A stretch of DNA of 64,000 bases from a virus. The translations under genes were made by a program, and so were the position numbers. Location: the UHGV virus genome UHGV-1421865. One strand, given 5' to 3'. Positions 3,806-52,835 of the stretch are shown here, piece by piece; positions within the stretch are counted from its first letter, which is position 1; each line of letters begins with the position of its first letter. The notes beneath the pieces were generated by a model. The model searched no databases. It worked only from the letters and a program-made list of their open reading frames with translations, and had not been told where the DNA came from.

Positions 3806-3950
3806 CCCAAAAATTTGCTCTCTACCACACGATTTTTGTTGAGGCTTAGTAGTACCAAGGTAAGTGTATTTGAGTGCGTCAGAGAGCCTAAAAAGTGCCT
3901 TTATGGACGTGTTATGATTCTACTGTAGCCTACCCAGAACAGAAACCGTC
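3806..3950 (+). repeat. Conserved structured intergenic element, copy A (8-copy family)
   Basis: Shares the family core: caaaaatttgctctct...cgatttttNtt...ccaaggt...atttgagtgcgtcagagagcctaaaaagtgcctttatggacgtg ... aacagaaacc. It is followed by the hairpin cagacg...cgtctg at about 3961-4003. Confidence 0.6.
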
Positions 3951-4007
3951 AAAAAATCAACAAAAAACAGACGCATTCTAGTTAAAGAACACGTCTGCTT
4001 GTTCAAA

Positions 4008-4922
4008 TTATAATATAGAATAAATCAAAGATTCTGTTCTGTTCTGCCACTGTCCGGATTTAATACTTCTTCTGATAGGTATATATTCTATTTTGTATCG
4101 TTTGTCGTTATATAGTGTCTCGAAGAATTTATCTGAGCCACTCGTATCGGAATTCGACTGTACCGTACACCCGCCGTTACTTATAATGTAATCTGATAAT
4201 TCTTTAATTTGTTTTTGACAAGAGTCGTCAAACGAGTTAGCGGTATAGCTACTGTATTCCGAATTGGTTTTGACTACATAATACGGTGGGTCGAAATATA
4301 CAAACGTCTTTTCGTCTTTGTTGTATACTTCTTTTAACAGACTATTAAAGTCTTTATTGTACAGTTCTGCTCTTTGTAGTAACGTAGAACATTCCTTAAG
4401 TGTATCAACATCAAATACAGCTGGATTCTTTTTACAACCGTGAGATACATTATATAAACCTTTTGAGTTTTCTCTGTACAGGCCATTGAATCCTGTCTTA
4501 TTAATGAACATAAAAAGTGCAGCGGACCGTACTGTGTTTTTAGGTTCTGCATTGTACTCGTCCCGACAGCGATAGTACATGTCTTCTCTGTCTGTACTAC
4601 CAAATTCATAACCTACATATTCTAATCTAAGATCAGTAAGTAAGTCAATCAAAGCATCTACATTGTCTCTAATTTGTTTATATACGTTAATAAGACCGGT
4701 ATTGACGTCATTTATCACGACACGCTTACAGTTTTTATAATGTTTTAGTATATAAAGCGACAATGCAGCGCTGCCGGCGAAAGGTTCTATAAAAGTGAAC
4801 TCCGGTGAGTTTAATATGTCTTTGTTTGTATGTGACAGTATAGTATCGATAATAGTATGTTTAGAACCGACCCATTTCAACACTTTCGGAATATCTACTT
4901 TATATTGTTTTATATCATTCAT
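4008..4922 (-). CDS. dam: DNA N6-adenine methyltransferase (Dam/D12 class)
   Basis: Motif I FIEPFAGSAALSL and motif IV FDPPYY, in the order typical of Dam-like adenine MTases. Confidence 0.85.
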   Translation of the reverse strand: MNDIKQYKVDIPKVLKWVGSKHTIIDTILSHTNKDILNSPEFTFIEPFAGSAALSLYILKHYKNCKRVVINDVNTGLINVYKQIRDNVDALIDLLTDLRLEYVGYEFGSTDREDMYYRCRDEYNAEPKNTVRSAALFMFINKTGFNGLYRENSKGLYNVSHGCKKNPAVFDVDTLKECSTLLQRAELYNKDFNSLLKEVYNKDEKTFVYFDPPYYVVKTNSEYSSYTANSFDDSCQKQIKELSDYIISNGGCTVQSNSDTSGSDKFFETLYNDKRYKIEYIPIRRSIKSGQWQNRTESLIYSIL

Positions 4923-4942
4923 GTAACTTAATTTACGAAGTT

Positions 4943-5443
4943 TTAACCACGAAGTGTTATTATTCTCTGATTGACAGAGCCTCTAAACTTTAAGTTCAAG
5001 TCTTTCTGCGACTCTTCGAAACGCCCGTCGACTAAGGTACCGATATAGTCCAAATACGGTCGACACAGTTCGTTCTGTTGTAAGTCTTCTAACAAATAAC
5101 CTGTCCATACCCATACGTCGGTAGTGTACTTGTTAATTAGTTTGAACAGTTCTAGTACGTCTTCAGAAGCCTGCACATGCCCGTTCCATGCGTGGTAGAA
5201 AGGATCACCCCCTAAGATAGATACTTTTACAGGTGTCGACGTATATGATTTTAGAAGAGACTCTATATAAGGTAATTTGTCTGTCAACAAATCCCCTTTA
5301 TTCGGGTCCCAGGTATGTGGTGACCAACACCCTTTACAGGCATTAGAACAACCACTCAACCATATCGACAGTCGAATACCCGGACCGTTCTGTACGTCGT
5401 ATTTATGAATTGCTAAGACACGTGATTGCATTGTATCTGTCAT
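4943..5443 (-). CDS. nrdG: Anaerobic ribonucleotide reductase activating protein (radical SAM)
   Basis: Cysteine motif CSNACKGC, plus [15 protein letters not shown] and RGSVNQ, which match NrdG signatures (DIWVWTGY, VLVDGKF, RGSSNQ in E. coli NrdG). The 5' end overlaps the glyA 3' end by 41 nt, so the true start may be the internal Met. Confidence 0.9.
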
Positions 5444-13904: not shown

Positions 13905-16900
13905 ATGATAACTAATATAGATAAATTTAGTAATCTTAGATTCATTACGTCGTCGTTAAATCCGCTGGAGCTTATTGGAAAGGTATTAAAGGATGCACAA
14001 AACAGTATTATAATAAATACCTACGGAGGTCATATCGGTATCTTTGTTTGTGACGGTGTCGGTAACATCCAACGTGCAACGGCCGAATTTTCTAATGACT
14101 TCAATATCGACGGTAATGTCGCGTCTATATCCGGTGCGGTAAATGAGTTGAAACAACAAATCAAGGACCTTAGAGATGCTTTCAATAAACTAAGTGAAAA
14201 TGGAGGTAATGTTCATGTACCGTTGATTACCAATCCTCCGCTACCGAAACCGGTTGATGTGAACTTATCTACTTCGAATGTTGTTATATTGGGGGATGAA
14301 GTGGCAAAAGTCACGATTACAGTCAGGTACGATAAGAACATTCGTTTTGATAGCGATGTAATTACACCGTCTATACATAAGAAGCACAGTGATATTCGGA
14401 CTGGTCTAAAGCTGGAGAATAGAGGTAGCAATACATGTCAATATACACTAACCATTTCTAAAGGCGATGCTACAGTCAGTAATAATACTATAACGGTTAA
14501 TGTAGGTGATCTGCACGCTAGGTTAGATGTAACTGTAACCAGACAAAATGATGTATTAGCTAAAATAACAAGATTACGTGTCACACCGGATAAAATAGTA
14601 TTTAATAACGATAATCAGTCGGCAATTATAAAGGTACATAAAGACTTATCGGCGGGTACCCAAAATATCAATCAATTAAAGACAGAAATTATCTCTTCCT
14701 CTGGTATAACAATTTCTAAAGTTGAATACAGCGAGCAAGTCGATAAGTACTATGTATCGGCTTCCGGGGGTGGTGGTACAGTAGTCTTCGGTGTGGCCGA
14801 TAGAAATTGGAATCCGGGTGTAGATAACACAAGTATTTCTATTACCGATAACAGAACAGTCGTTACACCGTCTGTAGTTCCAACACCCCCAACACCGAAA
14901 GCATTGCGTCGTATATCGAAGGTGATAGTAGAAGGTAATACTGGTATTGCTAATTCAGTACAATTCAAGGCAGGTACAGTTAAGACATTTAAGTATACTG
15001 CAGACTATGTAGGTGAACAAGAAGACGACTATACTAATAACATCTATATTGCATCTAAGGACGGTATCACAGTTGAAGTAGACAAAAAAACTAAAACAAT
15101 TACGTTCACTACACCGCGCACTTTAAGTGCTAAATCAGATGTCATATTTGACGTAATGTCTAATAACAAAGTAGTAGGTACAATACATGTTAACGTAACG
15201 GCACTTGAAATTCAACGTATATCGTCTGTAAGGGTAAACAACGGTGAACCTATAAGTATCACAGCGGGTACCGACAAGAAAGTATCGTACGAGATTGTGT
15301 CTTATAATGGCGAACTACCTGATAACGATACTAATAACATTGAGATTGCATCTAAGGATAATATAAACGTTACAGTAAATACAAAAGAAAAGACGATTAC
15401 ATTCCATACGGAAAGGACTTTAAGTGCTAAACAAGTCGACTTTGATATAACATCTAATAACAAAGTAGTAGATACAATACATGTTAATGTTAAGGCACTG
15501 CCTCTTAGACGTATAACTAAGATAACGGTAAATACTACTAATTCAGTACAATTCAAGGCCGGTACAGACACTACTGTTAACTACACTGTAACATACAACG
15601 GTAGCCCAGAAGACACTATTAGTGACAACAATACAGACAACATCGAGATTGCGTCAACACCCGACGTCATGGTTGGTATAAATCCTGTAGGAAAACAAAT
15701 TATGTTTAGTACAGAAAGCAATCTGGGTAAAAAATCAGTCGACTTTACTGTAACGTCGAACGGGGAAATAGTAGGTACAGTGCATGTTGATGTGACAGCT
15801 CAAGAGCCTCGACGTATAAGTGAAGTCCGAGTAAACGACAATAAACCGGTAAGTATCACAGCGGGTACCGACAAGAAAGTATCGTACGACATTATAGCTT
15901 ATAAAGGTGAACTACCAGATAACAATACAGACAACATTGAGGTTGTATCACCGGACAGTAGCATCACTGTTAAAGTAGACAAAACAAATAAGTCAATTAC
16001 GTTCACTACACCTCGCACTTTAAGTAGCCAATCGCATACCTTTAATGTGACATGTAACGGTAATAAAGTAGGCACAGTAAATGTTAACATTACGGCATTG
16101 CCAATTAGACGTATAACTAATGTAAGTGTAAACGGTGGTAGACCTGTAAGTCTCGCGGCCGGTGACGGTACTACTGTGGACTATACTGTAGCATACAACG
16201 GTAGCTCAGAAAACACCAATAGTGACAACAATACAGACAACATTGAAATCGTATCAAAGGACAATATCAATGTTATATTAGACCCTCGGAGAAAAAAAAT
16301 CACGTTCAGATTATCGCTCGATGTAATAAGTGCTAAATCGGTTAGCTTTGATATAATGTCTAACGGTACGAAAGTAGGTGAGGTAAATGTTGTGTTGCGT
16401 TATAATATAGTTCTTAAAAACGGATTAGGTGAGAATCCTATGATTCTGGTTCAGAATAGACGTGTCGCATTATCTGACTTAGCAAAGATTACCGGTACCT
16501 ACGGTACGCTTAAATACAAGTCATCTGTCTTTGCTTTAGAGAATCTTGATAATGAGTTGCAGTTTACAGAAAATGAAAACAAGCAGGGTACAGTTACGCT
16601 TTATGTAAAGGAAGACCCGACAGTCGAAAAATCGTTTACCGTTAAAATGTATAAGGCTTCGAGGGCAGAGATATATGCAGACGGAAAAGATTTAACAAGC
16701 GGTGTATTACGACGTGATCTACCGTTACAGTTAGCTACTAGATTTATTGACGGTGGTGTTACATTCTTTAATGATACCAATACGTTTAGAAAAGAAGTTA
16801 CATGGTCAGTTGAAAATGTCCATGGTAATACTAAAGTTGTAGATGCAATAGATCAAAACGGTCAGTTTAGAGTAGACAATGCTAGTGAATATAATATAAC

Positions 16901-19173: not shown

Positions 19174-19195
19174 TTTTTACTATTGAAAAAATAAA

Positions 19196-19230
19196 AAGAG
19201 ACTGTGCAGTTACTTGTACAGTCTCTTTTT
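19196..19230. terminator. Rho-independent-type hairpin (bidirectional: A-run / stem agagactgt...acagtctct / T-run)
   Basis: aaaaagagactgtgcagttacttgtacagtctctttttt. A near-identical hairpin recurs at 19430..19462, and together they flank element copy B. Confidence 0.6.
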
Positions 19231-19249
19231 TGTCAACTTATCAAAACAT

Positions 19250-38978: not shown

Positions 38979-39095
38979 ATCTTTAATGTATGTTTAATTG
39001 GTTTACTTGTTCGTATATTTGTATTATAGCGAACTTTGTGAGCAAAATCAGTGCAGTTACAATCAACTTGTAATATACATACAAAAACTCAAGAA

Positions 39096-39235
39096 AATCT
39101 CGTCTGTATCGCGTCGAAATCTTCTAGCCTTCACATACCCAGGTAAGTACGTTTGGACGCGACAGAGAGGCTAAAAAGTGCCTCTATGGACGTGTAATAG
39201 TTCAGCATACCGGTACACGCAACATAAACTCGAGA
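39096..39235 (+). repeat. Conserved structured intergenic element, copy E (divergent; compensatory stem changes)
   Basis: The stem ctgtatcgcgtc...gacgcgacagag pairs, whereas other copies use ctctaacgcac...gtgcgttagag. The conserved 3' block ggctaaaaagtgcctctatggacgtg is present. Confidence 0.55.
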
Positions 39236-39259
39236 AATCAACGTAGTTTGTGCACAAAA

Positions 39260-39618
39260 TCAGCCTCTCGCCTCGGCATAAACTATATCCTGTTTTGGTA
39301 CATAACGATTTCCTGAAAGCCTTTTACCTTCAAACGCTACACATTTTTGTTTTCTTACTTCGTCCCATACAGGATCCCAAATATCGGTTGCGTGCACATA
39401 ACATACACCTCGCAGTCCTAAAATACCGTCTTTCAAGTTGTAATACTCAGTACAAACATCGTATCCTTTATATTTTGTTGTATCAATATCACGGGCTAGT
39501 GTATCGTTAAGATTTATTCGTAGCACACCAATTGCCTCTTGTATGGTACTATAACAGTATTCTGAGTCATTTATTGCTTTTATTGCCGTAGTTATACTTA
39601 TGTCAGTAAATGGTTTCA
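39260..39618 (-). CDS. Small hypothetical protein (~119 aa from MMKPFTD); paralog of 24281..24580
   Basis: Shared KDGILGLRG and AFEG blocks. The track ORF extends upstream into element copy F, so the start is placed at the internal ATG. Confidence 0.4.
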
Positions 39619-39673
39619 TCATAATTATTTTTCTATAGTATAGTACATTTGTACAGGACAAATCAAAACCTCT

Positions 39674-39812
39674 AAAAATTTGCTCTCTGACGCACGATTT
39701 TTGTTGGACCTTACACATACTAAGGTCACTACATTTGAGTGTGTTAGAGAGCCTTAAAAGTGCCTTTACGAGGACGTTAGGTATTTACATACCAGTGCGC
39801 AAAACAGAAACT
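39674..39812 (+). repeat. Conserved structured intergenic element, copy F
   Basis: ctaaaaatttgctctctgacgcacgatttttgttggaccttacacatactaaggtcactacatttgagtgtgttagagagccttaaaagtgcctttacgaggacg...acagaaac. Confidence 0.6.
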
Positions 39813-39884
39813 GTCTAAATCAGTGCATTTTACAGAATCTACACGTACAGATTTTTACATATACAACAAATATAAACCGACACA

Positions 39885-42800
39885 ATGGCACGATCGTTAA
39901 TGGATACAATACGACAACGAGGAATTAGAACACCGTCTGGAGAAGAACCCGGATCCGAGGAACGCCCGTCGCTTGTAGACTCTATTATTTCCGGTGCGTT
40001 GGTGTCTTTGTTGTACGGCGTCGACGTATCACCCCGTGATGGAGACGACTTGTCTCGTCAAAGTCAGGCTCTTGGATCGAACAGAAACTCGTTATATAGT
40101 CTTATCGCAGATATTAAACGTACTCTGGAAAGTAGAAATGACGGTACACAACCTACTCTCGTTGAATTCAGTCCTACAACACAGTCTAAAATGGACAACA
40201 TCGTTAGATCGTTAGATAGACTAATTGATATTAAAGGTGTATTAGATACAACGGCTGTAGAATTAGAGTTTATACGTCGACTTTTAGAAAATTCTAATGT
40301 ATTATCTACATTGCCAGATAACAGAAACAGTATACAGCAATTAGATATTGTATTAAGATCCGACGGTAACGGTATAGATAAGTTGGTCGAGCTACTTGAT
40401 AAACTTAAAAATTTTAATATAGACGATGAAACAGCACAAAGACAGATTGTCGGTTTAACAGAAGTAGCTCGTGTTGTAAATACACTGAGTGATGTCAATA
40501 TAAATAGAGACGTACAAAATAATGTAAGTGTACTAAACGACATTATAAAAAACTTATCTAGTATACAAATACCGTCATCCGACACTAAACAAAAACAAAA
40601 CGCTACAGATTTCGGCGAAAGAATAACCAACATCATAAAAGCAATAAATAAGATATTTGAAGATGATACTTTTAAGAACTTAGCTAACAATATAAAGTCT
40701 ATAGAAGAAATTAAACATAAAAACGACCGCGACACTTTCGGTATCGGTATGATCGTCGGCTTCTTGGCATCTTTATCGGCCTTTATCGACAATGCAAATG
40801 TTATATCTAAAAAGAAAGTAAATAAAGGATTTAACAAGGTTTTAGTAAGCATGTCCTCTGAAATAGTAGATTCCCTATCAAAAGTAGCGCATAATATGGG
40901 ATCTGCAAAAAATGACATACTTGTCGTATCAGAAATGTTTTCCGGGTATGCTTCTTTTGTAGATACTGCATTGAAAATATCAGATAGATCGTTAGTATCG
41001 TTGTTATTGTTACATGTTAAATTAAAACTATCGTCGTCTGTATTTAATAAGGCATTTCTGGAACTTGTAACGTCTATAAAAGACATATCTATACAAATGG
41101 GTACTATCAGTGCCGTTACTAGAAGTGACTATAGACAACAAATCAATAACATTAAAGAAACATATTCGCAATTTAACGATACTATAGAAGCAATCGGTGA
41201 CGTTATTAGTATACGGTCGATGATAAAGACGATGCTGAAGTTGAAAGCGGCTAAGGGTACTGTCGACAGTGTTAATAAACTACTTACAGAAATGTTCACT
41301 GTTAGTATACCCCCGCGGGATGCTATGCAAGATCGTTTAGACTATTATATAGAACTCGCAACCGGTCTAAAACTAGTATTCGACGAATTACGACTAGTCA
41401 ACGACGCGGGTATCGGTAGACTCGACAAGTCCATAAAGAACCTCGTCGGTGCCGTTAAAGGACTAGATGCACTTGATAAAGTCGTCGGTAAGAAGACGGG
41501 TAAGAATGTAGGTCGTTTCATCCGAGGTTTCATGCACACCTTGTCTACTATCGACGAAAATGCCATCAATAATGCAGAGGAAACAAGTAAGACCTTCGCG
41601 TTGGTCGTCGGTGTCGCAGTCGGTGCATTACTCGTCGTTAGTGCAGCGTCCCTACTAATATCTTGGAAAGCTGTAGTAATGTTCGCTGCGGCGTTACCGT
41701 TGTTTATCTTAGGTGTATCGAAAGCGGCAGCGAAGATGAGCGGTCTTGATATTGACGACAGATCTATGAGTGCTTTTACTGATTTTGTTCTATCGTCTAC
41801 AATAGCGATGGCAGTCGGTAGTTTCTTGATGCGTTTTGTCCAACTTACCGACCTTACAATGTTCGTAGGAGGACTTATTGCTATGACAATCGGTGTCGGT
41901 ACGGCATATCGTATTATCTCCGCTATAGCAAATGCAGATACTATAAAGAATGTTGAAGCATTCAACCAGATGGTCTTGATGTCTGGTACAGTATTAGTTA
42001 TAGGTTCTTATATAACACAATATACCAATAAAGACGGTATATATAAGTTCCTCGGTATGCTCGGTGGCTTTACAGCCGGCGTCTCGTTAATCTATTTAGG
42101 ACTAGCAAAGATACTTAAAGACGACGTACTCAATGTATCAGAGCAATTTGTTGTGTTAGTCGCTGTATCAGGTGCTATTATGTTCGCCGGTGCATTGGTA
42201 TCTAAACTAATCGACCCCGTCGGTCTTATAACATTCACTGCATCGTTAGGTGCATTCTTGTTCGCCGTCAGCGGTATCTACATATTGCTGTCGAAGAAGA
42301 TTGGTAAGGAAGCCGTACAGATCGGTCGTGATTTCATGGTCTTGTTAGTCGTCTCGGGTGCTATCTTATTAGGCGCCGGTATGTTAATGCCTCTTGTTAA
42401 TAAAGAAGGTCTTATAACATTTACTGTGACACTCGGACTGTTCCTCTTAGGGGTCGGACTTGTATATAAGATAATGGGGTCTGTAGTCGACGACGCATTA
42501 AAGCACGCTCGTGACTTTACTATCCTCATCGCAGTGTCCGGTGCTGTACTCTTAGCCGGTGGTGCTATATTAGAAGCAATGGGTCCGAAAGGTATCGCAC
42601 ATGTTATACTGTTCGGTGTACTGTTATTCGGTTTTGTATACGGACTAACATGGATATACAAGAAGAATGCTAAAGATATAACCACTGCATTCGGTGTAGC
42701 GACAGGTCTTGCATTGTTAGTTGCTGTGTCCGGTGCTGTACTGTTAGCCGGTGGTGCTATACTTGAATTGATGGGCAAAGAAGGTGCCTGGTATACCGTC

Positions 42801-45800
42801 TTGTTCGGTGTCATGCTACTGGGCTTTGTCGCTGCACTAACATGGATATATAAGAAGAACGCTACAGATATTGCGATGTCGATACCGACGGCACTAGCAC
42901 TAGGTATACTCGTTGCTATTTCGGGTGCTGTACTACTGGCAGGGGGCAAAGTCATTGCCGATAACAAAGACATGTGGTGGGCAGTTCCTGAATTTGCGGC
43001 GATAACGGTGTTGTTCGTCGGCGGCATGTCGACTGTAATGTACTTATTAAGTCAAATAAAGGGTAATCTAGTCCAAGGTGGTTTAGCGATGTTGGCTATC
43101 GCAGGCATCACATGGTTGATGGGTAAAGCCCTCCAAGAGGTTGCCCTGGTTGCTCGTATCGCATCCGTCGATGAGGTAAAGCAAGTAATGTTGATAGGGG
43201 GTGTCCTAATTACGGGTGTGACGGCTATCGCCGCTGCATTGGGCGCTATCATAACAAGCGGTGTCGGAGCACTACTGTTGGGGGCCGGTGCCGCCGCACT
43301 TGCTGGTGTAATCGGCTTTGTATTCGCTATCAGTGAAATGGTGCGAAATGTCGTAGTGACAGCTACAATACTAAACAATGCACCTGAAATAGACTTTGAT
43401 AAGGTAAATGGTCTCGTCACCGGTATGTTCGGCATCGCTAAAAATATGGTAGAGGCGGCACCGTGGACGCTGATGGTGAAAGCAAAACTTGTGAGTAGTA
43501 CCATAATGGATCTTATCGGATCACTGGGTACTGTTGCTCAAGTAGTAAAAGACTTGGCAGACTTGAAGATTCCTATATATAACGGTACTAAATTATCCGG
43601 TTATATTACAATAGGCGACGAAACATTCGCTACTGTTGCCTCTAATATAGAAAAAATAATAACGGCGGTAACACGACCGCTTGTCGATACGATAAAAAAG
43701 AACCCAGATCTGTTCGGCACAGGTGATTTCTTCTCGAACCCATTTGTCGATACACCGGCTGTAGCCGCTGCGAAGATGGTAGGACATGTCGGTAATTCGT
43801 TAAGTAAGGTGGCACAGGGTGTTAAAGACTTAGCCGAACTTAAGATTCCTGTATATAACGGTACTACATTAACTAAGTATGTTACATTAGGCAACGAGAC
43901 GTTCAGTAAGGTCTCTACAAACGTAAAGAGTCTTATACTGGCAGTAGCTCGTCCGATTGTGTCGACTATTAAAGACAATCCAGATCTATTCAAAGAAGGT
44001 GCATTCAACGACAGTCCGGCTGTGAATGCGGCGAAAGCCGTCGGTGAAATAGGAAAAACGTTGACGCCGTTGGCACAGGGTGTTCAGTTCTGGTCGATGT
44101 TGAAGGTACCCGTTTACGAAGGTGAAAAGATAAAAGAATACATCACATTAGGAGACGATCAATTTGCACAGGTTGCTATAAATATAAAACGTGTAATCGA
44201 AGCTGTTGGCGGCGCACTTGTCACCACAGTAAAAAACAGTACGTTTATATTCGGTAGCTGGAACGGTGGTCTGATTAGTTCAGATGCACCAGCGTTGAAT
44301 GCGTCCAAGTCTATCTTACTGATTTCCAATTCGTTATCTCCAATAGCACAATGTCTGGCATATTATGCGTCTGGTAAATTCCCTATTATAACAGGATATG
44401 ATGCTCATGGCAAACCGATAATCGACTTGTCGACTACGATAACACAGGACACGATGAAGGTTGCACAACAGAACATCAAAGACGTTCTCACAGCTATATT
44501 AGATGTATTAAAAGACGTACAAGGCGATTTCGGAGGCGACTGGTTCGGTAGCGGTTCGGATGTAGAAAGAGCAAGTAAGGCTGTTACAGAAGTAGCGAAT
44601 TCGTTAAAGACAATGGTCGACGTCGTCGGTAATATGAGTAAAACGGACTTTGCAACTGTTAATGCTCAAGTAAATACGACACAGAAAAACATCAAGAGTC
44701 TATTAGAAGGTGTTGTTAGTATATTCACATTATTTAATAGTACAGCTAAAGATGCCGAGGGTAAAGACATGACAAACGGTTGGTTGAGTCGTATTTGGAA
44801 TGGTAAGAATAAGACAATAGAACAATTCTTAAACGACACTGCCGGTGATATTAAGTCGGCTATTGGTGGTATAGTAGATGCTTCTAAGGAAATAAGTAAG
44901 TTATTTACTGAAATAAGTGATCTTCAAAAGACAATTACCGATAACCAGAATTCAGTTACTAGCTTTATTAAACAAACACCTGTTGAGAAGGGTAGTAAAG
45001 AGATGCAATATGTTATTGTCAAGAACATAGGTAATATACTGTCTACGTTCACTGCGATAGTTAGTAGTATAGACAAAGAAGAACTCTCAAGCAACGCTTC
45101 GGATATTAAAACGATTGCTAAAGACGTTGATACATTCACCGACGGGTTCGGAGATATTCTAAAGTCACTTACCAAGGCGATGCAGTCGACCAATAGTTTT
45201 GTGAGTGCCGATCGCAGTGCGTTGGGTAACTTACAAGCGGTATTAAATGAATACAAGAACAGTATGTTGAAAATGGTAACTGTATTTAAGGGTATCGGAT
45301 CTGTTTCGATGCGAGATATTGCAGACACCACAATGTACCAGGACAGAGCGTTTAATCTACTTATAAGAACAGCACAGAACGCTTCGAACGCCGGAGGTAA
45401 CGGTTATTCTATCCTCGCGAAGGGTATTCTCGAGATTGCTGAAGCCGAAGCACAGCTTGGTCAGAACCAGACATTCGCTCAGCACGCCGCTGTCATGGAA
45501 CGGTATGTACAGACTATCAATGCGGTGAAGGTCGGCAACTTAGACAGGCTGAACAGTTTCGCTATCAGCTTAAACAACCTGGCAGAAAAGTTAGGAAATG
45601 TCGATAAACTCACTCATGCGTTAGCTGTGCATTTGACCGGTGTTCTTAATAGACTGGTTAAGGAAATAGAACGTGCCGAAAAGACCATCAATAACGCCGA
45701 TAAGATGCAGGTTCGTCGCTTCGATATGATCAAGAAATCTGTTAAGGACGTACAAAAGATTATGGACAAGAAGCTCGTTGTAGAAGTGAACCAAGGCATG

Positions 45801-46022
45801 GCTGGCGATGCCACATTAGAAGGCGGGGGTGTAGACTACGGTGGTACATCTAATTCAAGCACGACGATGAACGTTTCGGCGCCGTCCGGTTCTAGCACCG
45901 ACACTACTCCTACCACTAATAAAGCAAATAAAAAGAACGGTAGTATAGGTCTTACAGAACTCAACGAAGCACTCAGTGCAAACAACGACGTACTTGTTCG
46001 TAAATTAAAAGGTCGAAAATAG
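39885..46022 (+). CDS. Giant protein (2045 aa): putative tail tape-measure-like protein with N-terminal coiled coils, about seven tandem ~60-aa transmembrane-hairpin repeats and four C-terminal ~80-aa repeats
   Basis: TM-hairpin repeats (FMVLLVVSGAILLGAGMLMPLVNKEGLITFTVTLGLFLLGVGLVYKIMG x~7, aa ~720-1010). C-terminal repeats (LAQGVKDLAELKIPVYNGTTLTKYVTLGNETFSKVSTNVKSLILAVARPIVSTIKDNPDLF x4). Large size, alpha-helical and coiled-coil regions. No enzymatic motif recognised. Confidence 0.5.
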   Translation: MARSLMDTIRQRGIRTPSGEEPGSEERPSLVDSIISGALVSLLYGVDVSPRDGDDLSRQSQALGSNRNSLYSLIADIKRTLESRNDGTQPTLVEFSPTTQSKMDNIVRSLDRLIDIKGVLDTTAVELEFIRRLLENSNVLSTLPDNRNSIQQLDIVLRSDGNGIDKLVELLDKLKNFNIDDETAQRQIVGLTEVARVVNTLSDVNINRDVQNNVSVLNDIIKNLSSIQIPSSDTKQKQNATDFGERITNIIKAINKIFEDDTFKNLANNIKSIEEIKHKNDRDTFGIGMIVGFLASLSAFIDNANVISKKKVNKGFNKVLVSMSSEIVDSLSKVAHNMGSAKNDILVVSEMFSGYASFVDTALKISDRSLVSLLLLHVKLKLSSSVFNKAFLELVTSIKDISIQMGTISAVTRSDYRQQINNIKETYSQFNDTIEAIGDVISIRSMIKTMLKLKAAKGTVDSVNKLLTEMFTVSIPPRDAMQDRLDYYIELATGLKLVFDELRLVNDAGIGRLDKSIKNLVGAVKGLDALDKVVGKKTGKNVGRFIRGFMHTLSTIDENAINNAEETSKTFALVVGVAVGALLVVSAASLLISWKAVVMFAAALPLFILGVSKAAAKMSGLDIDDRSMSAFTDFVLSSTIAMAVGSFLMRFVQLTDLTMFVGGLIAMTIGVGTAYRIISAIANADTIKNVEAFNQMVLMSGTVLVIGSYITQYTNKDGIYKFLGMLGGFTAGVSLIYLGLAKILKDDVLNVSEQFVVLVAVSGAIMFAGALVSKLIDPVGLITFTASLGAFLFAVSGIYILLSKKIGKEAVQIGRDFMVLLVVSGAILLGAGMLMPLVNKEGLITFTVTLGLFLLGVGLVYKIMGSVVDDALKHARDFTILIAVSGAVLLAGGAILEAMGPKGIAHVILFGVLLFGFVYGLTWIYKKNAKDITTAFGVATGLALLVAVSGAVLLAGGAILELMGKEGAWYTVLFGVMLLGFVAALTWIYKKNATDIAMSIPTALALGILVAISGAVLLAGGKVIADNKDMWWAVPEFAAITVLFVGGMSTVMYLLSQIKGNLVQGGLAMLAIAGITWLMGKALQEVALVARIASVDEVKQVMLIGGVLITGVTAIAAALGAIITSGVGALLLGAGAAALAGVIGFVFAISEMVRNVVVTATILNNAPEIDFDKVNGLVTGMFGIAKNMVEAAPWTLMVKAKLVSSTIMDLIGSLGTVAQVVKDLADLKIPIYNGTKLSGYITIGDETFATVASNIEKIITAVTRPLVDTIKKNPDLFGTGDFFSNPFVDTPAVAAAKMVGHVGNSLSKVAQGVKDLAELKIPVYNGTTLTKYVTLGNETFSKVSTNVKSLILAVARPIVSTIKDNPDLFKEGAFNDSPAVNAAKAVGEIGKTLTPLAQGVQFWSMLKVPVYEGEKIKEYITLGDDQFAQVAINIKRVIEAVGGALVTTVKNSTFIFGSWNGGLISSDAPALNASKSILLISNSLSPIAQCLAYYASGKFPIITGYDAHGKPIIDLSTTITQDTMKVAQQNIKDVLTAILDVLKDVQGDFGGDWFGSGSDVERASKAVTEVANSLKTMVDVVGNMSKTDFATVNAQVNTTQKNIKSLLEGVVSIFTLFNSTAKDAEGKDMTNGWLSRIWNGKNKTIEQFLNDTAGDIKSAIGGIVDASKEISKLFTEISDLQKTITDNQNSVTSFIKQTPVEKGSKEMQYVIVKNIGNILSTFTAIVSSIDKEELSSNASDIKTIAKDVDTFTDGFGDILKSLTKAMQSTNSFVSADRSALGNLQAVLNEYKNSMLKMVTVFKGIGSVSMRDIADTTMYQDRAFNLLIRTAQNASNAGGNGYSILAKGILEIAEAEAQLGQNQTFAQHAAVMERYVQTINAVKVGNLDRLNSFAISLNNLAEKLGNVDKLTHALAVHLTGVLNRLVKEIERAEKTINNADKMQVRRFDMIKKSVKDVQKIMDKKLVVEVNQGMAGDATLEGGGVDYGGTSNSSTTMNVSAPSGSSTDTTPTTNKANKKNGSIGLTELNEALSANNDVLVRKLKGRK

Positions 46023-46107
46023 TACTTATCAATAACAAAATAAGACGGTCTCTGGAATGAACGAGATCGTCTTATTTCAGTTATATATCGACTAAACTCT
46101 AAACGTC

Positions 46108-46250
46108 CAAAAATCTCCTCTCTAACGCACGATTTTTCTTTGACCTTCACTAGGCTAAGCCTAGTATATTTGAGTGCGTTAGAGAGCCTTAAAAGTGCCT
46201 TTACGGGCTTGTAATGTATTTGTACGTCCCTGCCCAAAACAGAAAACGTA
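46108..46250 (+). repeat. Conserved structured intergenic element, copy G
   Basis: aaaaatctcctctctaacgcacgatttttctttgaccttcactaggctaagcctagtatatttgagtgcgttagagagccttaaaagtgcctttacgggc...aaaacagaaaac. Confidence 0.6.
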
Positions 46251-46322
46251 CAAATCAGGACAAAAAGTATGATTTATCATATAAAAACAGCTATTGTAAA
46301 TATACAAATATAGTAAATAAAT

Positions 46323-49845: not shown

Positions 49846-50958
49846 TTAATACAGTTCTATACGTAGACCTAACTTATTGGCTTTTAACATCTTAGATGAT
49901 GTAGAGTTTATATCACCCGTGAAGAGTACTTTCGCGTCTGACCAACTGTTTGTTTGAACGTACTGTGGATTCTTCTCCAGAAATTCTTTCTTAGACGCAT
50001 ATTTAGACGGACTACCCGTCAACATCACAGGCACTTGTGTAGTCTTGCTTGTACCGACGTGTAAGTTTGTAAGTTGACACATACCAATGCCGTAGTCAGT
50101 AAGTGCGTTAACCAACGCATTGAATTGCAACCATTTAGGTGATTGGTGATTATAGACCCAACTGTACCCTTCCGATGCGACACCACTGAAATCGGCTTGT
50201 CCAGTACCGATGAACTGCGCACATTTCTTAGCGCATGTGGAACCACATTTGTTGAAATTCAACGACTTGATGATGTCTACTAATGTGATTTGTCGTCGGT
50301 AATTCTTAAACGATTCGGCGGCTTTCTGCCCTCGTTTACCTTTCAACGCTTGTTCTATCTGTTCCGGTCTTACTTGGAGTATATTTGTTAAACTCTCGAA
50401 GTTATGTTGTAAAGTGTCGTACAACGCAGCCGCTACAGACGGACCGATGTTAGGTATCTTCAGAGTTTGTGCAGACGCGATGAACTGCCCACGGTTACTC
50501 ACAAGACCCACCAGATGACAACCTTCTACAACAGCATCATTTGGTAAACTACCGAGGTCCTTTGATGGATTGTCAAGTACAGAATAAAGAAACGGAATAA
50601 TGTCACCGGCTAAGGAAACTTCAATCTCCGTACCTATACCTACTTGATTATCAATAAGATAGCCGTAGTTATGTCCAGAACATTTAGTGACTATTTTATC
50701 AAGTAGTACAACAGGTTCAAAGACAATCACCGGTGTATACTCTCCGGTCTTACCTTGGTTCCATACAATATCTACTACCTTCGTCTTTTGAATTTCCGGA
50801 ACAAATTTCACAGCAACGCAGTCCGACGGTCGAACTTTATCGGTATTCTGTTCTCTGACAGGGAGTATAGGCTTGATAACAAACCCGTCCAGAGCATATT
50901 CACACTCTTCGGTACGGTATTTGTTAAAGTCGTTATATAGTTCTTGTAAGGTACTCAT
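49846..50958 (-). CDS. ligA: NAD-dependent DNA ligase, C-terminal fragment (from 20 aa before nucleotidyltransferase motif IV, through the OB-fold and HhH region)
   Basis: ALDGFVIKP (motif IV DGVVIK), VAVKFVPE (motif V), OB-fold WNQGKTGEYTPVIVFEPVVL, HhH-like GIGPSVAAALY. Its start ATG overlaps the thyA-family stop in a TAATG arrangement. Confidence 0.85.
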   Translation of the reverse strand: MSTLQELYNDFNKYRTEECEYALDGFVIKPILPVREQNTDKVRPSDCVAVKFVPEIQKTKVVDIVWNQGKTGEYTPVIVFEPVVLLDKIVTKCSGHNYGYLIDNQVGIGTEIEVSLAGDIIPFLYSVLDNPSKDLGSLPNDAVVEGCHLVGLVSNRGQFIASAQTLKIPNIGPSVAAALYDTLQHNFESLTNILQVRPEQIEQALKGKRGQKAAESFKNYRRQITLVDIIKSLNFNKCGSTCAKKCAQFIGTGQADFSGVASEGYSWVYNHQSPKWLQFNALVNALTDYGIGMCQLTNLHVGTSKTTQVPVMLTGSPSKYASKKEFLEKNPQYVQTNSWSDAKVLFTGDINSTSSKMLKANKLGLRIELY

Positions 50959-51926
50959 TATACTGCGATAGGTGCTTTAATAACAGGGGGTGTATAAGAA
51001 CCGTCGAAATGTTTCTTTACCTTTATCTGTCGGCTTTCGTACATCTCCAAAATATAACACAAATAAGCGTCTAAGGACATCGGTACATTCACAGTAGACA
51101 TGGTCATATCCAAGGTGCATTCTACGGTATGATAACATTGCGTCACATAGTCATCGGTATTAGTAAAGAACGAATCGATATATTCCTGTACAGCATCTTT
51201 ATGATTGTCGTAGATATGGAAATTATCGGCGGTATAGTATATATTTCCGCATTTTACTTTATCGATACCATATTTCTTTTTGAACCATTCATGGTTGACC
51301 TTAAAATAGCCGTTTATAAACCAGTTGAACCAAGAACAGAATATGAAATTATACGGCGCACCCAAGAACGCGTCGTTACTGCGAATATGAGCATGTAGGT
51401 TGTGTGTAAGTACTGTATTCCCAGCGTCGTCTGTGTCCAACTGAAATGTAACGTTATATTCGAACATACAAGGTGCCAGTGCCATTTCCGGTAGGTCGTT
51501 CACATTCCAAAGTGAGATAATATGTCGGCGCGAGAATAAATTGTTATTGAAACCTTCAAATAGTTGTTTCAACTGATCAATACCGTTAAAGTTTCGAAAC
51601 TGATAACCGTACGCCTTACCGATAGTACCATCTTCCTGTACCCATTCATCCCAATAGGTAACACCGTGGTCGCGAAGCCACTGTACGTCGGTCCGTCCTT
51701 GCAGCATCCAGAGTAGTTCGGTGAGTGCCATTCGAGGATAAACACGTTTTCCGTTCACCACCATCAGTCGAACTTCGTCGGACGGTGAAGGAGACTGTTC
51801 AAATACAAAGTTGATACCGTAAGAGTTCAACGTACTGATGTCGGTTCTATTCGACATTTTCTGTGTGACAGTCGACAATATGTTAGTAAGCTGTCTTACA
51901 TAGTCTGTTTCAAATAGTTGTGTCAT
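50958..51926 (-). CDS. thyA: ThyA-family enzyme (thymidylate synthase or dUMP hydroxymethylase), 322 aa, nested between the two ligase fragments
   Basis: ELLWMLQGRTDVQWLRDHGVTYWDEWV; RRHIISLWNVNDLPEMALAPCMFEYNVTF (E. coli [29 protein letters not shown]); IRSNDAFLGAPYN (RSxD...N, the dUMP-type Asn); TADNFHIYDNH; C-terminal KAPIAV. The His next to the catalytic Cys is Met here. Confidence 0.85.
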   Translation of the reverse strand: MTQLFETDYVRQLTNILSTVTQKMSNRTDISTLNSYGINFVFEQSPSPSDEVRLMVVNGKRVYPRMALTELLWMLQGRTDVQWLRDHGVTYWDEWVQEDGTIGKAYGYQFRNFNGIDQLKQLFEGFNNNLFSRRHIISLWNVNDLPEMALAPCMFEYNVTFQLDTDDAGNTVLTHNLHAHIRSNDAFLGAPYNFIFCSWFNWFINGYFKVNHEWFKKKYGIDKVKCGNIYYTADNFHIYDNHKDAVQEYIDSFFTNTDDYVTQCYHTVECTLDMTMSTVNVPMSLDAYLCYILEMYESRQIKVKKHFDGSYTPPVIKAPIAV

Positions 51927-52602
51927 TGTTTAATGGATATTCTAGTTTATAAAATTTAGGTGTCTTGGGAAGTCCGTACCATTCTCGTTCTGTCCACTTA
52001 CCGTTTTCTAATACTCTATAATCGTATATGATAATGTCTAAATCATCGTCGTATTCGTGAGATGTACTATTCAAGACACCCGATACCATCGAACGAGGAC
52101 TCGAGAACTTATCTTTGTATTTCTCTTCAAATGTCTTCAGTTTTACCAGCACCTCACCACGTATAACTGCCTGTGCACCATATACATAGTAGTCTGGATA
52201 AACCGATCGAATTTGCTTAATAAGGTGGCTACGCAAGTCTTTACCGTAATTCCCGTCGCCCCGAGACGATATGCTGCCAACAGTACCGTTCGCATTGATA
52301 ACACATTCGAAAGAACAACCGTCGAATTTCGGGGTCACTTCTATGGCATTATCACCGACATATTTTTTAATATCTTCTGTATAATTAGAAAAATCATCTA
52401 AGCTATGAACTTGGACCTTGTAGAGGGATCCCATTATAAACGGATGCCGTACAGTATATGTTGTACTGGATTTAGTACCGATATAAGACTTGTTCTCGAG
52501 ACCTAGCTCTTTCTCTAACGCGTCAAATTCTGTGTCAGACATTATCTCCTGCCCATTGTAGTATGCTTCTTTTGCTTTATGGTATAATTCTTCTTTTGTC
52601 AT
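51910..52602 (-). CDS. ligA: NAD-dependent DNA ligase, N-terminal fragment (Ia domain plus adenylation motifs I-III), 230 aa
   Basis: KxDG adenylation motif TPKFDGCSFE; motif III VIRGEVLV. It ends in a TGA, 17 nt after the thyA-family start in another frame. Confidence 0.85.
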   Translation of the reverse strand: MTKEELYHKAKEAYYNGQEIMSDTEFDALEKELGLENKSYIGTKSSTTYTVRHPFIMGSLYKVQVHSLDDFSNYTEDIKKYVGDNAIEVTPKFDGCSFECVINANGTVGSISSRGDGNYGKDLRSHLIKQIRSVYPDYYVYGAQAVIRGEVLVKLKTFEEKYKDKFSSPRSMVSGVLNSTSHEYDDDLDIIIYDYRVLENGKWTEREWYGLPKTPKFYKLEYPLNNDTTI

Positions 52603-52682
52603 CTTATCATCATATAGTTTATACTTTATATAGTATAGTTTACAAGAAAAATCAGCTACTTAAAACATTGTTTTGGGTCTAC

Positions 52683-52835
52683 TTTGACAGTTTCTATTTC
52701 GTGTACCGACGTGTACAAATCTAGAATCGTCATAAAGGCACTTTAGAGCTCCTGTATCGCGTCGAAATTATCTAGCCTTACTACAACCAAGGTCAACTAA
52801 TTTGTACGCGATACAGGAGAGATTTTTATTGAGTT
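52683..52835 (-). repeat. Conserved structured intergenic element, copy H (reverse orientation)
   Basis: The reverse complement matches the family: ...aaaaatctctcctgtatcgcgtacaaattagttgaccttggttgtagtaaggctagataatttcgacgcgatacaggagctctaaagtgcctttatgacgattctagatttgtacacgtcggtacacgaaatagaaactg. Confidence 0.55.

Follow-up and report, generated by a model that had tools for sequence, protein, structure and literature searches.

Intergenic, imperfect long palindromes in many copies make up the REP/BIME, ERIC/IRU, Correia, BOX and RUP classes, ERIC being about 127 bp long, and elements of the REP/ERIC class may influence termination, mRNA stability or the binding of gyrase. The RNase III sites of phage T7 are similar intergenic hairpins of about 50-60 nt that are repeated along the genome and all point with transcription. 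Folded single-strand DNA sites include attC sites, the ends of IS200/IS605 and the N4 hairpin promoters, and small-RNA genes are usually enclosed by terminators. Also close to the case described here are the promoter-early stem-loop (PeSL) cassettes of T4-type phages (Arbiol et al. 2010, PMC2839356; Comeau et al. 2014, PMC4122927), whose defining feature is a strong sigma-70-type promoter that leads into a Shine-Dalgarno sequence and a start codon.

Here we describe a real multi-copy, intergenic, hairpin-forming family in a window of 64,000 nucleotides, the whole stretch of UHGV virus genome UHGV-1421865 that was analysed (Table 1). An initial annotation had reported eight copies, each lying between genes, and both statements hold: a covariance model built from the eight and run unfiltered on both strands of the window returns exactly these eight matches (136-168 bits, E-values 1e-23 to 1e-29) and nothing else credible, the remaining matches above 16 bits being only reverse-strand echoes of the palindromic hairpin, while open reading frames and sequence place all eight copies outside genes. 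Repeat detection on the window finds the family independently, as repeat groups D7 and D13, and AAAGTGCCTYTAYG has 8 exact occurrences against 1.4 expected. The copies, first put at ~140-150 nt, are slightly longer, at 157-158 nt, and both orientations are used, seven copies (A-G) being on the plus strand and one (H) on the minus strand.

Table 1. Copies of the element in the window, the parts of copy C, and associated terminators and promoter-like motifs
Feature	Position	Strand	Basis or remark
Copy A	3801-3958	+	149.8 bits, covariance model
Bidirectional terminator left of B	19193-19231	.	A-run, hairpin GAGACTGTGCAG..TTGTACAGTCTC, T-run
Copy B	19244-19400	+	Covariance model
Bidirectional terminator right of B	19425-19460	.	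Sequence family of the left one, inverted
Copy C	22908-23065	+	Covariance model
C: A-run	about 22916-22921	+	Alignment columns
C: outer stem arms	22924-22937 and 22981-22994	+	Alignment columns
C: inner hairpin arms	22949-22954 and 22964-22969	+	Alignment columns
C: block AAAGTGCCTTTACG	22999-23012	+	Alignment columns
C: AAACAGAAAC	23044-23053	+	Alignment columns
C: end box	about 23058-23065	+	Alignment columns
Bidirectional terminator between C and D	23079-23128	.	Sequence
Copy D	23153-23310	+	Covariance model
Promoter-like motif (CTGATTTTG..N..CTATAAT) outside E	39023-39051	-	Motif search
Copy E, minor stem type	39085-39241	+	Covariance model
Phage promoter-like motif abutting 5' edge of F	39637-39665	-	Motif search
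Copy F	39666-39823	+	Covariance model
Copy G	46101-46258	+	Covariance model
Phage promoter-like motif 12 nt beyond G	46270-46295	+	Motif search; predicted to drive RuvC-like gene
Phage promoter-like motif 24 nt beyond H	52629-52654	-	Motif search; predicted to drive gene 51910-52602
Copy H, minor stem type	52678-52835	-	Covariance model

Most of the architecture given in the initial annotation is found in the copies, namely an A-run block at the 5' end, an outer stem around a GACCTT...AAGGTC inner hairpin, and the 3' block AAAACAGAAAC. The outer stem has 14 bp and the inner stem 6 bp, with an 11 x 11-nt internal loop between them, and the conserved A-run stands 3-4 nt from the stem foot. Conserved blocks that remain unpaired are TTTAYG, AGAAAC and AAAATCAG. 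The block GCCTWAAAAGTGCCTTTAYG, which had been called almost invariant, is present and invariant within the major clade of related phages but varies in a deeper clade, and the proposed second hairpin is not conserved, GGTATTTACATACC occurring only in B and F, with the other copies pairing differently or weakly there. The loop of the inner hairpin is found in both orientations, as GGTACTACT in C, L035:3563 and L044 and as AGTAGTACC in A, L056:191, L061 and L064. When the complementary strand is read, every copy in both clades has the outer stem at its end, followed after 3-4 nt by U4-5, an offset that is poor for an intrinsic terminator.

Compensatory changes had been proposed for the outer stems of E and H, and the alignment bears them out: 8 of the 14 outer-stem pairs are altered on both sides, transversions included (C-G to G-C, A-U to U-A). 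Paired cells make up 86.9% of the hairpin as against 80.5% in shuffles, with 0 of 500 shuffles reaching the observed value, and 62 cells are altered on both sides where 32 are expected; slid controls give 22-48%. The further claim, that this covariation reflects selected RNA or DNA structure, stands insofar as pairing is kept by two-sided changes, but the signal comes essentially from two deep stem types and is strand-neutral. Because these two types dominate and paralogues homogenise one another, the number of independent covariation events is small. In the major clade 44 A.C stand against 16 G.U in the given sense, a wobble bias that favours the complement, whereas in the deeper clade the given strand is favoured, by its G.U pairs and by better folding of the plus strand; since the bias flips between clades, no strand can be assigned and covariation does not separate RNA from DNA. 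Fold z-scores for 150-nt pieces of B, C, D, G and H, each strand, range from -1.4 to -5.7, with values of -3 or below for D, G and H whichever strand is folded and for C on the minus strand, and folding is slightly better with a copy's own 3' half than with a chimeric one (p about 0.01-0.02).

The surroundings of the copies are varied. Copy A sits between two genes of the minus strand, 2441-3643 and 4008-4922, so its complement is what local transcription reads. Copy B has convergent genes on either side and, as had been claimed, the same bidirectional terminator at both ends, once in each orientation, the right-hand one with a 16-pair stem on the minus strand and a 10-pair stem on the plus strand; the whole arrangement recurs in two related genomes (L064:5572, L062:336). 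Copy C begins 7 nt past the stop codon of an 807-aa gene (20478-22901) and stands in tandem with D, as first described, at a spacing of 245 nt with a terminator between, while D faces the 3' end of a minus-strand tRNA array. The minus-strand gene 39260-39622 stops 18 nt short of copy E, and the promoter-like motif 35 nt from E points away and is predicted to drive a 42-aa ORF. Copy F stands between divergent genes (39622 minus, 39885 plus), and the motif at its edge likewise points outward and is predicted to drive gene 39260-39622. A giant gene and then its terminator precede copy G, and a RuvC-like gene begins 65 nt past it; H is preceded by a terminator, with the minus-strand gene 51910-52602 lying 75 nt downstream. 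Terminator-like hairpins within ~60 nt, noted earlier for several copies, are there for A, B, C and D.

Across the family the element occupies the borders of genes or operons, whichever way it points, and is often enclosed by terminators; such enclosure is seen at B and its two orthologues, D/L038, L044, L060:11907 and L050:7027/L039. A conserved promoter of the -10/-35 or -7/-33 kind is absent from both strands of the element, and neither TAnnTTTG nor a generic sigma-70 pattern is enriched. The sole promoter-like arrangement is TTGACC-N19-TACATT, within the hairpin of the major clade and lost in the deeper one. A promoter-plus-terminator block was considered and rejected, there being no promoter kept across clades. 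In L061 and L050:2936 the next gene begins 13-21 nt past the element, which leaves a complementary-strand promoter no space outside it.

The family is restricted to one clade of T4-like phages of roughly 207-228 kb from human oral metagenomes, and one related genome holds at least 16 copies. The T4-like character of the large, uncultured phage studied here shows in topoisomerase II, Td, Frd and DNA polymerase B, and in the gp13-type neck protein of its relatives. The novelty suggested at first persists, with no match in Rfam and none outside the phage's own clade in phage, viral-contig and bacterial-genome collections. Copies flank the giant gene on both sides in 8 of 8 genomes examined, down to 58-61% protein identity; this is the identity of the deeper clade's giant protein, a multi-pass membrane and coiled-repeat protein rather than a polymerase. 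The copy at the F position, upstream of the giant gene, is kept in all relatives examined, the deeper clade included, and the position of G is kept in relatives; between clades the flank upstream of the element is unalignable and the downstream promoter-like stretch alignable. At the E site three related genomes have a short terminator hairpin alone, so E belongs to an indel, which carries a small ORF and represents an imprecise replacement. The copies also serve, as a side effect, as homology patches in the DNA for gene conversion and the swapping of adjacent gene cassettes: one pair within a genome is 97% identical, which is attributed to gene conversion at an old locus because its orthologue L039:790 is only 84% identical, and L032:3139 is a chimera that joins a G-locus 5' part to an L058-type 3' end, followed by the downstream gene of L058.

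Of the roles named in the initial annotation, small RNA, transcript leader or processing site and protein-binding hairpin are each still candidates. Our tentative reading, drawn from the sequence, is that each copy may be an autonomous intergenic module yielding a structured non-coding RNA of ~150 nt, and that the copies would form a paralogous small-RNA family. The module would act in single-stranded, folded form; each copy would be transcribed, the hairpin would be the stable core of the RNA and, on the complementary strand, hairpin and UUUUU may double as a terminator-like 3' end, with the unpaired conserved blocks as a putative surface for recognition by a protein or nucleic-acid partner. 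Several observations speak for such an RNA: length is 157 or 158 nt in 35 of 36 full matches, with indels almost absent even across clades; all combinations of neighbour-gene orientation occur and placement is independent of them, as expected of an autonomous unit; and on the complementary strand each copy starts with CTGATTTTG, a sequence that also heads the phage's own promoter-like motif (12 found, 1.7 expected). An uncompensated G.G mismatch in the outer stem of 13 copies and a 3' half with no single conserved fold across copies speak against it.

Nearly as likely as a small RNA is a DNA-level site, at which a protein or complex would read the conserved blocks together with the hairpin, extruded as a cruciform or as a folded single strand, with possible roles in supercoiling or topoisomerase action, in the initiation of replication or recombination, or in regulating nearby outside promoters. 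The strand-neutral hairpin signal agrees with this, as do a fixed length of about 15 helical turns that admits no indels even in variable stretches, the inner-loop flip, a DNA-level event that is tolerated, and a 3' half kept as sequence blocks with little structure. Copies without a conserved promoter, many of them between two terminators where nothing would transcribe, point the same way, and so do their spacing (about one copy per 8-13 kb) and the type II topoisomerase subunit that the phage itself encodes. The end box AAATCAG, moreover, is the reverse complement of the CTGATTT box in the outward-facing promoter-like motifs 12-35 nt off, and the F locus of L078 and L079 has three such end boxes in succession, about 11-13 nt apart. 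No binding protein was identified, however, and terminator-enclosed copies have no promoter to regulate; duplex binding needs no 8 compensated pairs, which leaves an extruded or single-stranded form, an uncommon requirement, and the weak covariation of the 3' half is unexpected under duplex recognition. A cassette of the T4 PeSL kind, a composite of promoter and terminator that would insulate units and shuffle flanked genes through recombination, is a good deal less likely. The phage is T4-like, most copies stand 10-25 nt past an intrinsic terminator and about half precede a gene, the complement's stem and U-run resemble a terminator, and the -35-like TTGACC and TACATT of the major clade straddle the inner hairpin as in many PeSLs (PMC2839356); the E indel with its small ORF, the chimera and the gene conversion among paralogues also suit such a cassette. 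Yet its promoter-like boxes have a 19-nt spacer, with G at position -11 in about a third of copies and GTCCGG replacing the box in the deeper clade, adjacent genes own a separate promoter-like motif, half of the copies face a terminator or a convergent gene's 3' end, the 3' end offers no Shine-Dalgarno sequence or start codon, and of the 158 nt, 70 conserved nucleotides are superfluous to a promoter or terminator.

Two further explanations are improbable. In one, the copies would be dispersed repeats of a MITE-, REP- or ERIC-like kind, selfish or neutral, that spread by transposition or recombination, are tolerated between genes and are transcribed only passively. Size, hairpin potential, both orientations, intergenic position and copy number are those of that class; there is one presence/absence difference (E), a 97%-identical pair inside one genome, a decayed copy (L062:3999) and an interrupted one (L060:12571, 27-nt insertion), and AAATCA, present at the 3' end, is often found immediately beyond the 5' edge too. 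The MITE-like option of the initial annotation fares poorly, the inverted repeat being internal rather than terminal and clean target-site duplications absent; no transposase was seen, the 97% pair reflects conversion rather than spread, the same loci are held at unchanged length across deep divergence, and a mean pairwise identity of 75% among 31 major-clade copies indicates no recent burst. In the other, the element would be a cis-acting RNA signal in neighbour transcripts, serving for T7-style RNase III processing, stabilising 3' ends or terminating transcription in one direction. Its lower stem, large symmetric internal loop and upper stem may be likened to the T7 sites, and a stop codon with no further terminator directly adjoins some copies: E (18 nt) and L060:6151 (9 nt) follow a gene read on the complementary strand, C and L061 (7 nt) one read on the given strand. 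In relatives a conventional terminator hairpin occupies the place that the element has at the E site. Co-directional gene runs, however, read the given sense at 8 loci and the opposite at 4, a poor fit for an RNA signal that is strand-specific and whose 70 conserved nucleotides are asymmetric, and many copies lie behind strong terminators.

Set beside known systems, the element would resemble T7 RNase III sites in being a hairpin family, with lower stem, internal loop and upper stem, that recurs along a phage genome, but it occurs in both orientations inside gene runs and its unit is 158 nt. With the REP/ERIC class it appears to have in common size class, long palindrome, intergenic position, both orientations and multiple copies; those reside in chromosomes, and Correia and RUP, which are MITE-like, are bounded by terminal inverted repeats, whereas here the palindrome is internal, beside a long asymmetric conserved arm, and loci are stable across divergence. 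Sites of the attC type offer a possible parallel in stem, unpaired bubble, second stem, variable loop, kept pairing and movable gene cassettes, and function on a folded DNA strand would account for strand-neutral covariation, which we regard as a lead only; neither an integrase nor an HUH transposase nor a virion RNA polymerase was found, and attC is variable in sequence where the phage element is conserved. Small-RNA genes are matched, on the complementary strand, by a conserved 5' box, variable region, unpaired block, GC-containing hairpin and U-run, and by terminator-enclosed loci, but at least 16 paralogues per genome are unusual, and the element has no recognisable promoter, a U-run offset by 3-4 nt and no Rfam family. 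From PeSLs it differs in having no conserved promoter, in that half of its copies face no gene, and in a far longer hairpin with compensated changes and 70 further conserved nucleotides. Although it thus fails the promoter test that defines T4 PeSL cassettes, the element behaves like them, as a conserved motif of about 100-160 bp scattered between the genes of a large T4-like phage, with a stem-loop at transcription-unit boundaries, inter-copy recombination and a copy at indel or cassette-swap junctions.

The initial annotation had reported a family of eight copies of a structured intergenic element (lettered A-H), and a covariance model built from these copies and run unfiltered over both strands of the window returned exactly eight full-length matches, the same eight, at 136-168 bits (E-values of 1e-23 to 1e-29). 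All remaining scores were at most 15 bits, except for reverse-strand echoes of the palindromic hairpin. Over the intervals as first delimited, the copies align with a mean column identity of 70-74% and long invariant runs, and one block, AAAGTGCCTYTAYG, has eight exact occurrences against 1.4 expected. Every copy in the window lies between open reading frames (8 of 8), as had been stated, and the tandem arrangement of C and D holds, with one terminator separating the two.

Positions of element copies and neighbouring features (plus-strand coordinates of the window unless a contig of a related genome is named)
Feature	Position	Strand	Basis or remark
Copy A	3801-3958	+	covariance model
Copy B	19244-19400	+	covariance model
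Copy C	22908-23065	+	covariance model
Copy D	23153-23310	+	covariance model
Copy E	39085-39241	+	covariance model
Copy F	39666-39823	+	covariance model
Copy G	46101-46258	+	covariance model
Copy H	52678-52835	-	covariance model
Phage promoter-like motif, starts listed	9484, 10640, 25895, 26938, 29627, 29709, 34292, 39050, 39665, 46270, 52654
42-codon ORF next to E (MEKFKSFFMSLFITIGVLLL...)	38850-38978	-	own promoter-like motif; in extra sequence lacking at this site in three related genomes
Iterated end boxes, deeper clade	L078:9925-9975, L079:9915-9975
Inverted terminator pair around B	19193-19231 / 19425-19460
Giant gene	39885-46022	+	2045 aa
Internal direct repeats within the 1601-aa gene	15012-16309	+	families D16, D19, D20
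Topoisomerase subunit	56136-57998
NAD-dependent DNA ligase	49846-52602	-	N-terminal adenylation part 51910-52602; C-terminal part 49846-50958
Thymidylate synthase gene	50958-51926
tRNA array	23523-29540	-	16 Rfam-called genes
Long tRNAs	23605-23703; 25389-25488		99 nt; 100 nt
Extra ARAGORN tRNA call	24118-24188		two-base anticodon
Clusters of short paralogous genes	30680-36720; 53170-53810; 58150-63380	-; -; +
BspA-type gene pair	53164-53495 and 58373-58704		89% inverted repeat

Read in the orientation of the first description (the given sense), the element begins with a conserved leader, AAAC..AAAAAT(Y)T, followed by an outer stem of 14 bp (columns 17-30 with 74-87), an internal loop of 11 x 11 nt that is T-rich in the major type, and an inner stem of 6 bp (GACCTT/AAGGTC) with a 9-nt loop. 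After the stem come a conserved block (GCCTWAAAAGTGCCTTTAYG), a variable stretch of about 30 nt, a 3' conserved block (AAAACAGAAAC) and an end box (AAAATCAG); the length is 157 or 158 nt in 35 of 36 full matches. Across 37 aligned copies, standard pairs fill 86.9% of stem cells, compared with 80.5% after shuffling, and none of 500 shuffles reached the observed value. Both-sided differences occupy 62 stem cells where 32 are expected, and sliding the partner by 1-3 columns lowers pairing to 22-48%. In the outer stem, both-sided change affects 8 of the 14 pairs, and stem changes fall mainly between two types: a major one (GCCCTCTAACGCAC/GTGCGTCAGAGGGC), and a minor one (CTCCTGTATCGCGT/ACGCGATACAGGAG) found in E, H and the entire deeper clade, a group of relatives 58-61% identical in the giant protein to the window phage, which with its close relatives forms the major clade. 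The compensatory changes claimed for E and H are borne out as the both-sided differences that separate these types, transversions (C-G to G-C, A-U to U-A) being among them. Since such changes are compensated, pairing itself appears to have been kept, beyond sequence, and in this respect the initial annotation is upheld; an uncompensated G.G mismatch is present in the outer stem of 13 copies. The inner loop reads GGTACTACT in some copies and the exact reverse complement, AGTAGTACC, in others. To judge from these sequences, the inversion is a DNA-level flip of the kind that hairpins undergo, which would mean that the inner-loop sequence is not read.

Conservation beyond the hairpin is more limited than first described. 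The block called almost invariant is indeed invariant within the major clade, but in the deeper clade it is replaced by TAAAGCACGTTTATG, TATAGTACCTTTACG and TATGGCACTATTATG, and the second hairpin said to be shared (GGTATTTACATACC) is present in B and F only. Single-sequence folds of the 3' half disagree among copies on both strands, and RNAalifold predicts no structure there. Own 3' halves fold 0.7-0.9 kcal/mol better than chimeric ones (p ~0.01-0.02, marginal), and a proposed closing helix reaches a likewise marginal p of ~0.03-0.05; with individual folds in conflict and own-versus-cross tests marginal, a conserved second hairpin or closed 3' domain was rejected. As for the strand, two stem positions of the major clade are mostly A.C in the given sense, equivalent to G.U on the complement (44 versus 16), and the complement folds better (alifold -10.4 versus -2.8). 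In the deeper clade it is the given sense that has the G.U wobble pairs, and 4 of 6 copies fold better on this strand. An RNA on the complement, proposed from the A.C to G.U bias, was withdrawn because the deeper clade is biased oppositely.

Three related genomes, reached through homologues of the small gene that separates E from F, carry a copy at the F and G positions, which flank the giant gene, and none at the E position; their giant gene encodes about 2000-2255 aa. A pattern scan of metagenome contigs led to two contigs (143 kb and 69 kb) of one related genome, bearing 16 full or nearly full copies and two partial or weak ones, in both orientations and at one copy per ~10-20 kb, with one contig ending inside a copy. 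The deeper clade, found via giant-protein homologues at 58-61% identity, retains copies at F, at G and at further positions (59-97 bits with the covariance model), and all clade-member genomes examined have a copy on either side of the giant gene. Relatives at 22-26% identity have no copies and no space for one. Scans of IMG/VR gave chance single matches only, and a scan of GTDB, with one genome per bacterial species, chance matches only, all of which the covariance model rejected. Rfam, the comparison suggested by the initial annotation, holds no family matching the element: at the gathering threshold, Rfam 15 matched only 16 tRNAs in the whole window, and in E-value mode over C-D, on both strands, it gave chance-level miRNA/sRNA matches, mostly on the flanking terminator. 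The family is absent from the RNA and sequence libraries searched (Rfam, INPHARED, IMG/VR and GTDB), and from the observed distribution the element is restricted to a single phage clade, within which it is old. The 8 copies in the 64-kb window and the 16 or more in the related 212-kb genome extrapolate to roughly 15-30 copies per genome; the family takes up about 2% of a ~220-kb genome.

The window encodes a family B DNA polymerase, a GyrB-like topoisomerase subunit, thymidylate synthase, an NAD-dependent ligase, methyltransferases and a RuvC-like nuclease, and relatives carry a T4 gp13-type neck protein, DHFR and dUTPase, a gene content that points to an uncultured T4-like jumbo phage of ~207-228 kb. 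No INPHARED sequence resembles the region in DNA and protein searches, and the topoisomerase subunit is present on human oral metagenome contigs, among them contigs of 0.2-1 Mb. Shine-Dalgarno-like motifs precede 3 of 190 start codons (predicted genes of the window and related loci), which suggests a host with Shine-Dalgarno-independent initiation, such as a member of the Bacteroidota. The ligase is apparently split, with the thymidylate synthase gene between its two parts. Within the tRNA array two genes are unusually long, and ARAGORN adds a call over whose interval Rfam has no match. The three clusters of short paralogous genes encode 25-residue BspA-type leucine-rich repeats (DUF285, PF03382, in relatives), with more than 15 paralogues in 64 kb, many sharing the N-terminus MSLSKYITERLKIT, and one gene pair forms an inverted repeat. 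Direct repeats with periods of ~300 and 600 nt (63-74% identity) indicate a repetitive domain in the 1601-aa protein, which matches no family. No family, PHROG or PDB entry matches the giant protein, which comprises hydrophobic repeated segments (~residues 570-1130) and long coiled repeats; its homologues span 1789-2474 aa (2001-2255 aa in the clade members examined). It aligns with distant homologues via these repeated hydrophobic segments and coiled repeats and looks like a multi-pass membrane and coiled-repeat protein; the idea that this neighbour is a hairpin-reading virion RNA polymerase of the N4/crAss style was dropped for want of a family or structure match.

The genomic surroundings of the copies are varied, all four combinations of neighbouring gene orientation being seen. 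Many copies begin 10-25 nt downstream of an intrinsic terminator. For the terminators said to follow several copies closely, terminator-like hairpins were found within 60 nt after A, B, C and D, and the twin bidirectional terminators around B proved to be the same terminator twice, in opposite orientations. This terminator (GAGACTGTACAGTTACTTGTACAGTCTC) forms a repeated family in its own right, with further members beside other copies of the element in related genomes (loci L060, L062 and L064, the L numbers denoting contigs of relatives). About half of the copies have an outward promoter-like motif and a gene 12-35 nt past the 3' edge (F, on both sides, G, H, L058/L032:3139, L059 and L060:12571), and others are followed by a terminator or convergent gene (B and two orthologues, C, D/L038, L044, L060:11907 and L050:7027/L039). 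Some copies are squeezed in between genes in the absence of any other signal. Among these, in the given sense, L061 has a stop codon 7 nt before it and a start codon 13 nt after it, L050:2936 overlaps a stop codon and has a start 21 nt beyond it, and C has a stop codon 7 nt before it; E and L060:6151 lie 18 and 9 nt after a stop codon in the opposite sense. In co-directional gene runs the given sense goes with transcription at 8 loci and against it at 4, and this 8:4 split, with the mixed orientations along the related genome, led us to reject orientation set by replication or local transcription. The element is context-independent, which speaks for an autonomous unit or a DNA site and makes a leader, 3' UTR or strand-specific processing signal less likely.

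Copies are old and stable at their loci, as comparisons between genomes indicate, with a mean pairwise identity of 75% in an alignment of 31 copies from major-clade genomes. At the F locus the alignment of the two clades has no gap within the element; upstream of it the flanks cannot be aligned, and downstream only the promoter region can. Exchange between copies is also evident. L050:7027 shares 97% identity with L056:191, a paralogue from the same genome, compared with 84% with its orthologue L039:790, and the tract converted by L056:191 coincides with the element. L032:3139 is a chimera of the 5' two-thirds of a G-locus copy and the 3' end of L058, followed by the downstream gene of L058. 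H has the minor stem type, the same-locus copy in a relative being of the major type; L062:3999 is decayed and hybrid, and L060:12571 is interrupted by 27 nt. E lies within an indel, where it and an extra 42-aa ORF occupy the place of a short terminator hairpin in relatives; at this site, the sole filled/empty pair, ~200 nt replace 12-15 nt imprecisely.

Several promoter types were sought in the element. A promoter-like motif specific to the phage, TGATTT(T)-N11-18-CTAT[AT] followed by AT-rich sequence, has 12 occurrences where 1.7 are expected, most of them immediately before genes and tRNA groups; reverse-complemented, its first box gives the end box of the element. Read on the complement, the end box (CTGATTTTG) is identical to the upstream box of this motif, but neither clade shows a -10-like element following it at constant spacing. 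In the deeper clade GTCCGG stands in place of the ATTTG box, so no promoter is conserved across the family. At the F locus of that clade the end box occurs three times at ~11-13-nt spacing (CAAAATCAG, CAAAATCGAC, TAAAATCGAC), in iteron-like fashion. A Bacteroidota-type promoter across the inner hairpin (TTTG-N22-TAcaTTTG) was attractive given the near-absence of Shine-Dalgarno motifs; it was rejected as not enriched, with its TA not conserved but carrying a G in a third of the copies, and lost in the deeper clade. Its -7 box, TAnnTTTG, occurs 35 and 41 times in the window against 34 and 35 expected, the full motif (-33 TTTG / -7 TAnnTTTG) is found in 2 of the 8 window copies, and the spacing within the element is 22 nt, compared with 19-21 nt for this promoter type. 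No consistent -10 of sigma-70 type was found on either strand, and the generic pattern is not enriched (30 matches versus 32 expected); the sole candidate, TTGACC-N19-TACATT, draws on the same bases, has G at -11 in about 9 of 28 copies and loses its box in the deeper clade, and this promoter too was rejected. On the complement, all copies of both clades present the 14-bp stem, then AAA or AGA, then UUUUU (U4-5). The U-run is offset by 3-4 nt from a stem enclosing 43 nt; the given strand has no U-tract, and a consensus terminator scan does not call the long stem.

We tentatively regard each copy as an autonomous structured small RNA, the single most likely reading; RNA and DNA readings fit the sequences nearly equally well. 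The RNA reading is favoured by the usual inference from compensated stems, and because the loci are terminator-enclosed and the complement would have a coherent layout of promoter-type box, body, long hairpin and U-run. Against it stand the lack of a recognisable promoter and the wobble bias that is opposite between clades. A site acting as DNA ranks next and is a real possibility: the stem is strand-neutral, the loop flip is tolerated, length is strict, the 3' half is conserved block-wise and promoters were not found in the element, and the end box is the reverse complement of adjacent promoter boxes and is iterated at the deeper-clade F locus. Such a site would need hairpin extrusion or a single-stranded form, plus a protein partner. 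The transcript leader or processing site of the initial annotation, or any other cis-acting RNA element, is improbable, the context-independence of the copies arguing against it.

The copies may represent ~15-30 paralogues per genome of a new ~150-nt structured RNA class, or attC-like folded single-strand DNA sites, whose partner would be a phage or host machine (polymerase, topoisomerase, recombinase or defence system) and which would double as cassette crossover points in T4-like oral jumbo phages. Should the element prove to be RNA, a virus from the human oral microbiome would carry a paralogous small-RNA family of unusual size; should it be a DNA site, it would point to a genome-organising or recombination system that has gone unrecognised in T4-like jumbo phages. 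The element sits exactly where gene cassettes were exchanged, its length is kept base for base though neighbouring proteins are only ~60% identical, and further study is warranted by its size, its copy number, its strict length and its deep conservation.

To our knowledge, phage genomes seldom carry dispersed, conserved non-coding modules. The few understood cases, T7 RNase III sites, T4 PeSLs and mycobacteriophage stoperators, each showed how a phage organises transcription or reshuffles genes. A CRISPR-repeat mimic, an idea prompted by Cas13b repeats, was rejected because the GTDB scan gave no host-genome match. A selfish MITE-like repeat, among the roles first proposed, is about as improbable as a cis-acting RNA: unlike in MITEs, the inverted repeat is internal, spanning columns 17-87 of 158, complementarity between the two ends (AAAC.. 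and ..AAAATCAG) is lacking, the sole filled/empty pair shows neither a target-site duplication nor precise junctions, and position and length have been stable over the long term. The AAATCA box at both edges of the element is the phage promoter box as well. In contrast to IS200/IS605-derived PATEs, which have subterminal hairpins at both ends and go with a Y1 (HUH) transposase in the genome, the element has one robust hairpin that is not subterminal, and no transposase was seen among the proteins scanned or the precomputed Pfam lists of relatives; with no terminal repeats and an imprecise filled/empty site, MITE or IS200/605-like mobility was rejected.

The closest likeness is to the PeSLs of T4-related phages, recombining intergenic cassettes described at indel and replacement junctions (PMC2839356, PMC4122927). 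Sequence comparison places the element at such junctions too, with recombination between copies (E, L032:3139, L050:7027). Unlike a PeSL, it has no strong sigma-70-like -35/-10 within it and no Shine-Dalgarno motif and start codon of a downstream gene at its 3' end, and a terminator or convergent gene lies ahead of about half of the copies. PeSLs have a stem-loop acting as terminator or attenuator; in the element the long stem is followed, on the complement alone, by an offset U4-5. A promoter/terminator cassette of PeSL type is accordingly unlikely, if less so than a selfish repeat, its defining promoter test having failed. The element would fall outside the nearest kinds, PeSL, MITE/REP-like repeats and, compared by description, T7 RNase III sites; its behaviour is a variant of a known theme, that of dispersed intergenic hairpin cassettes in large lytic phages.
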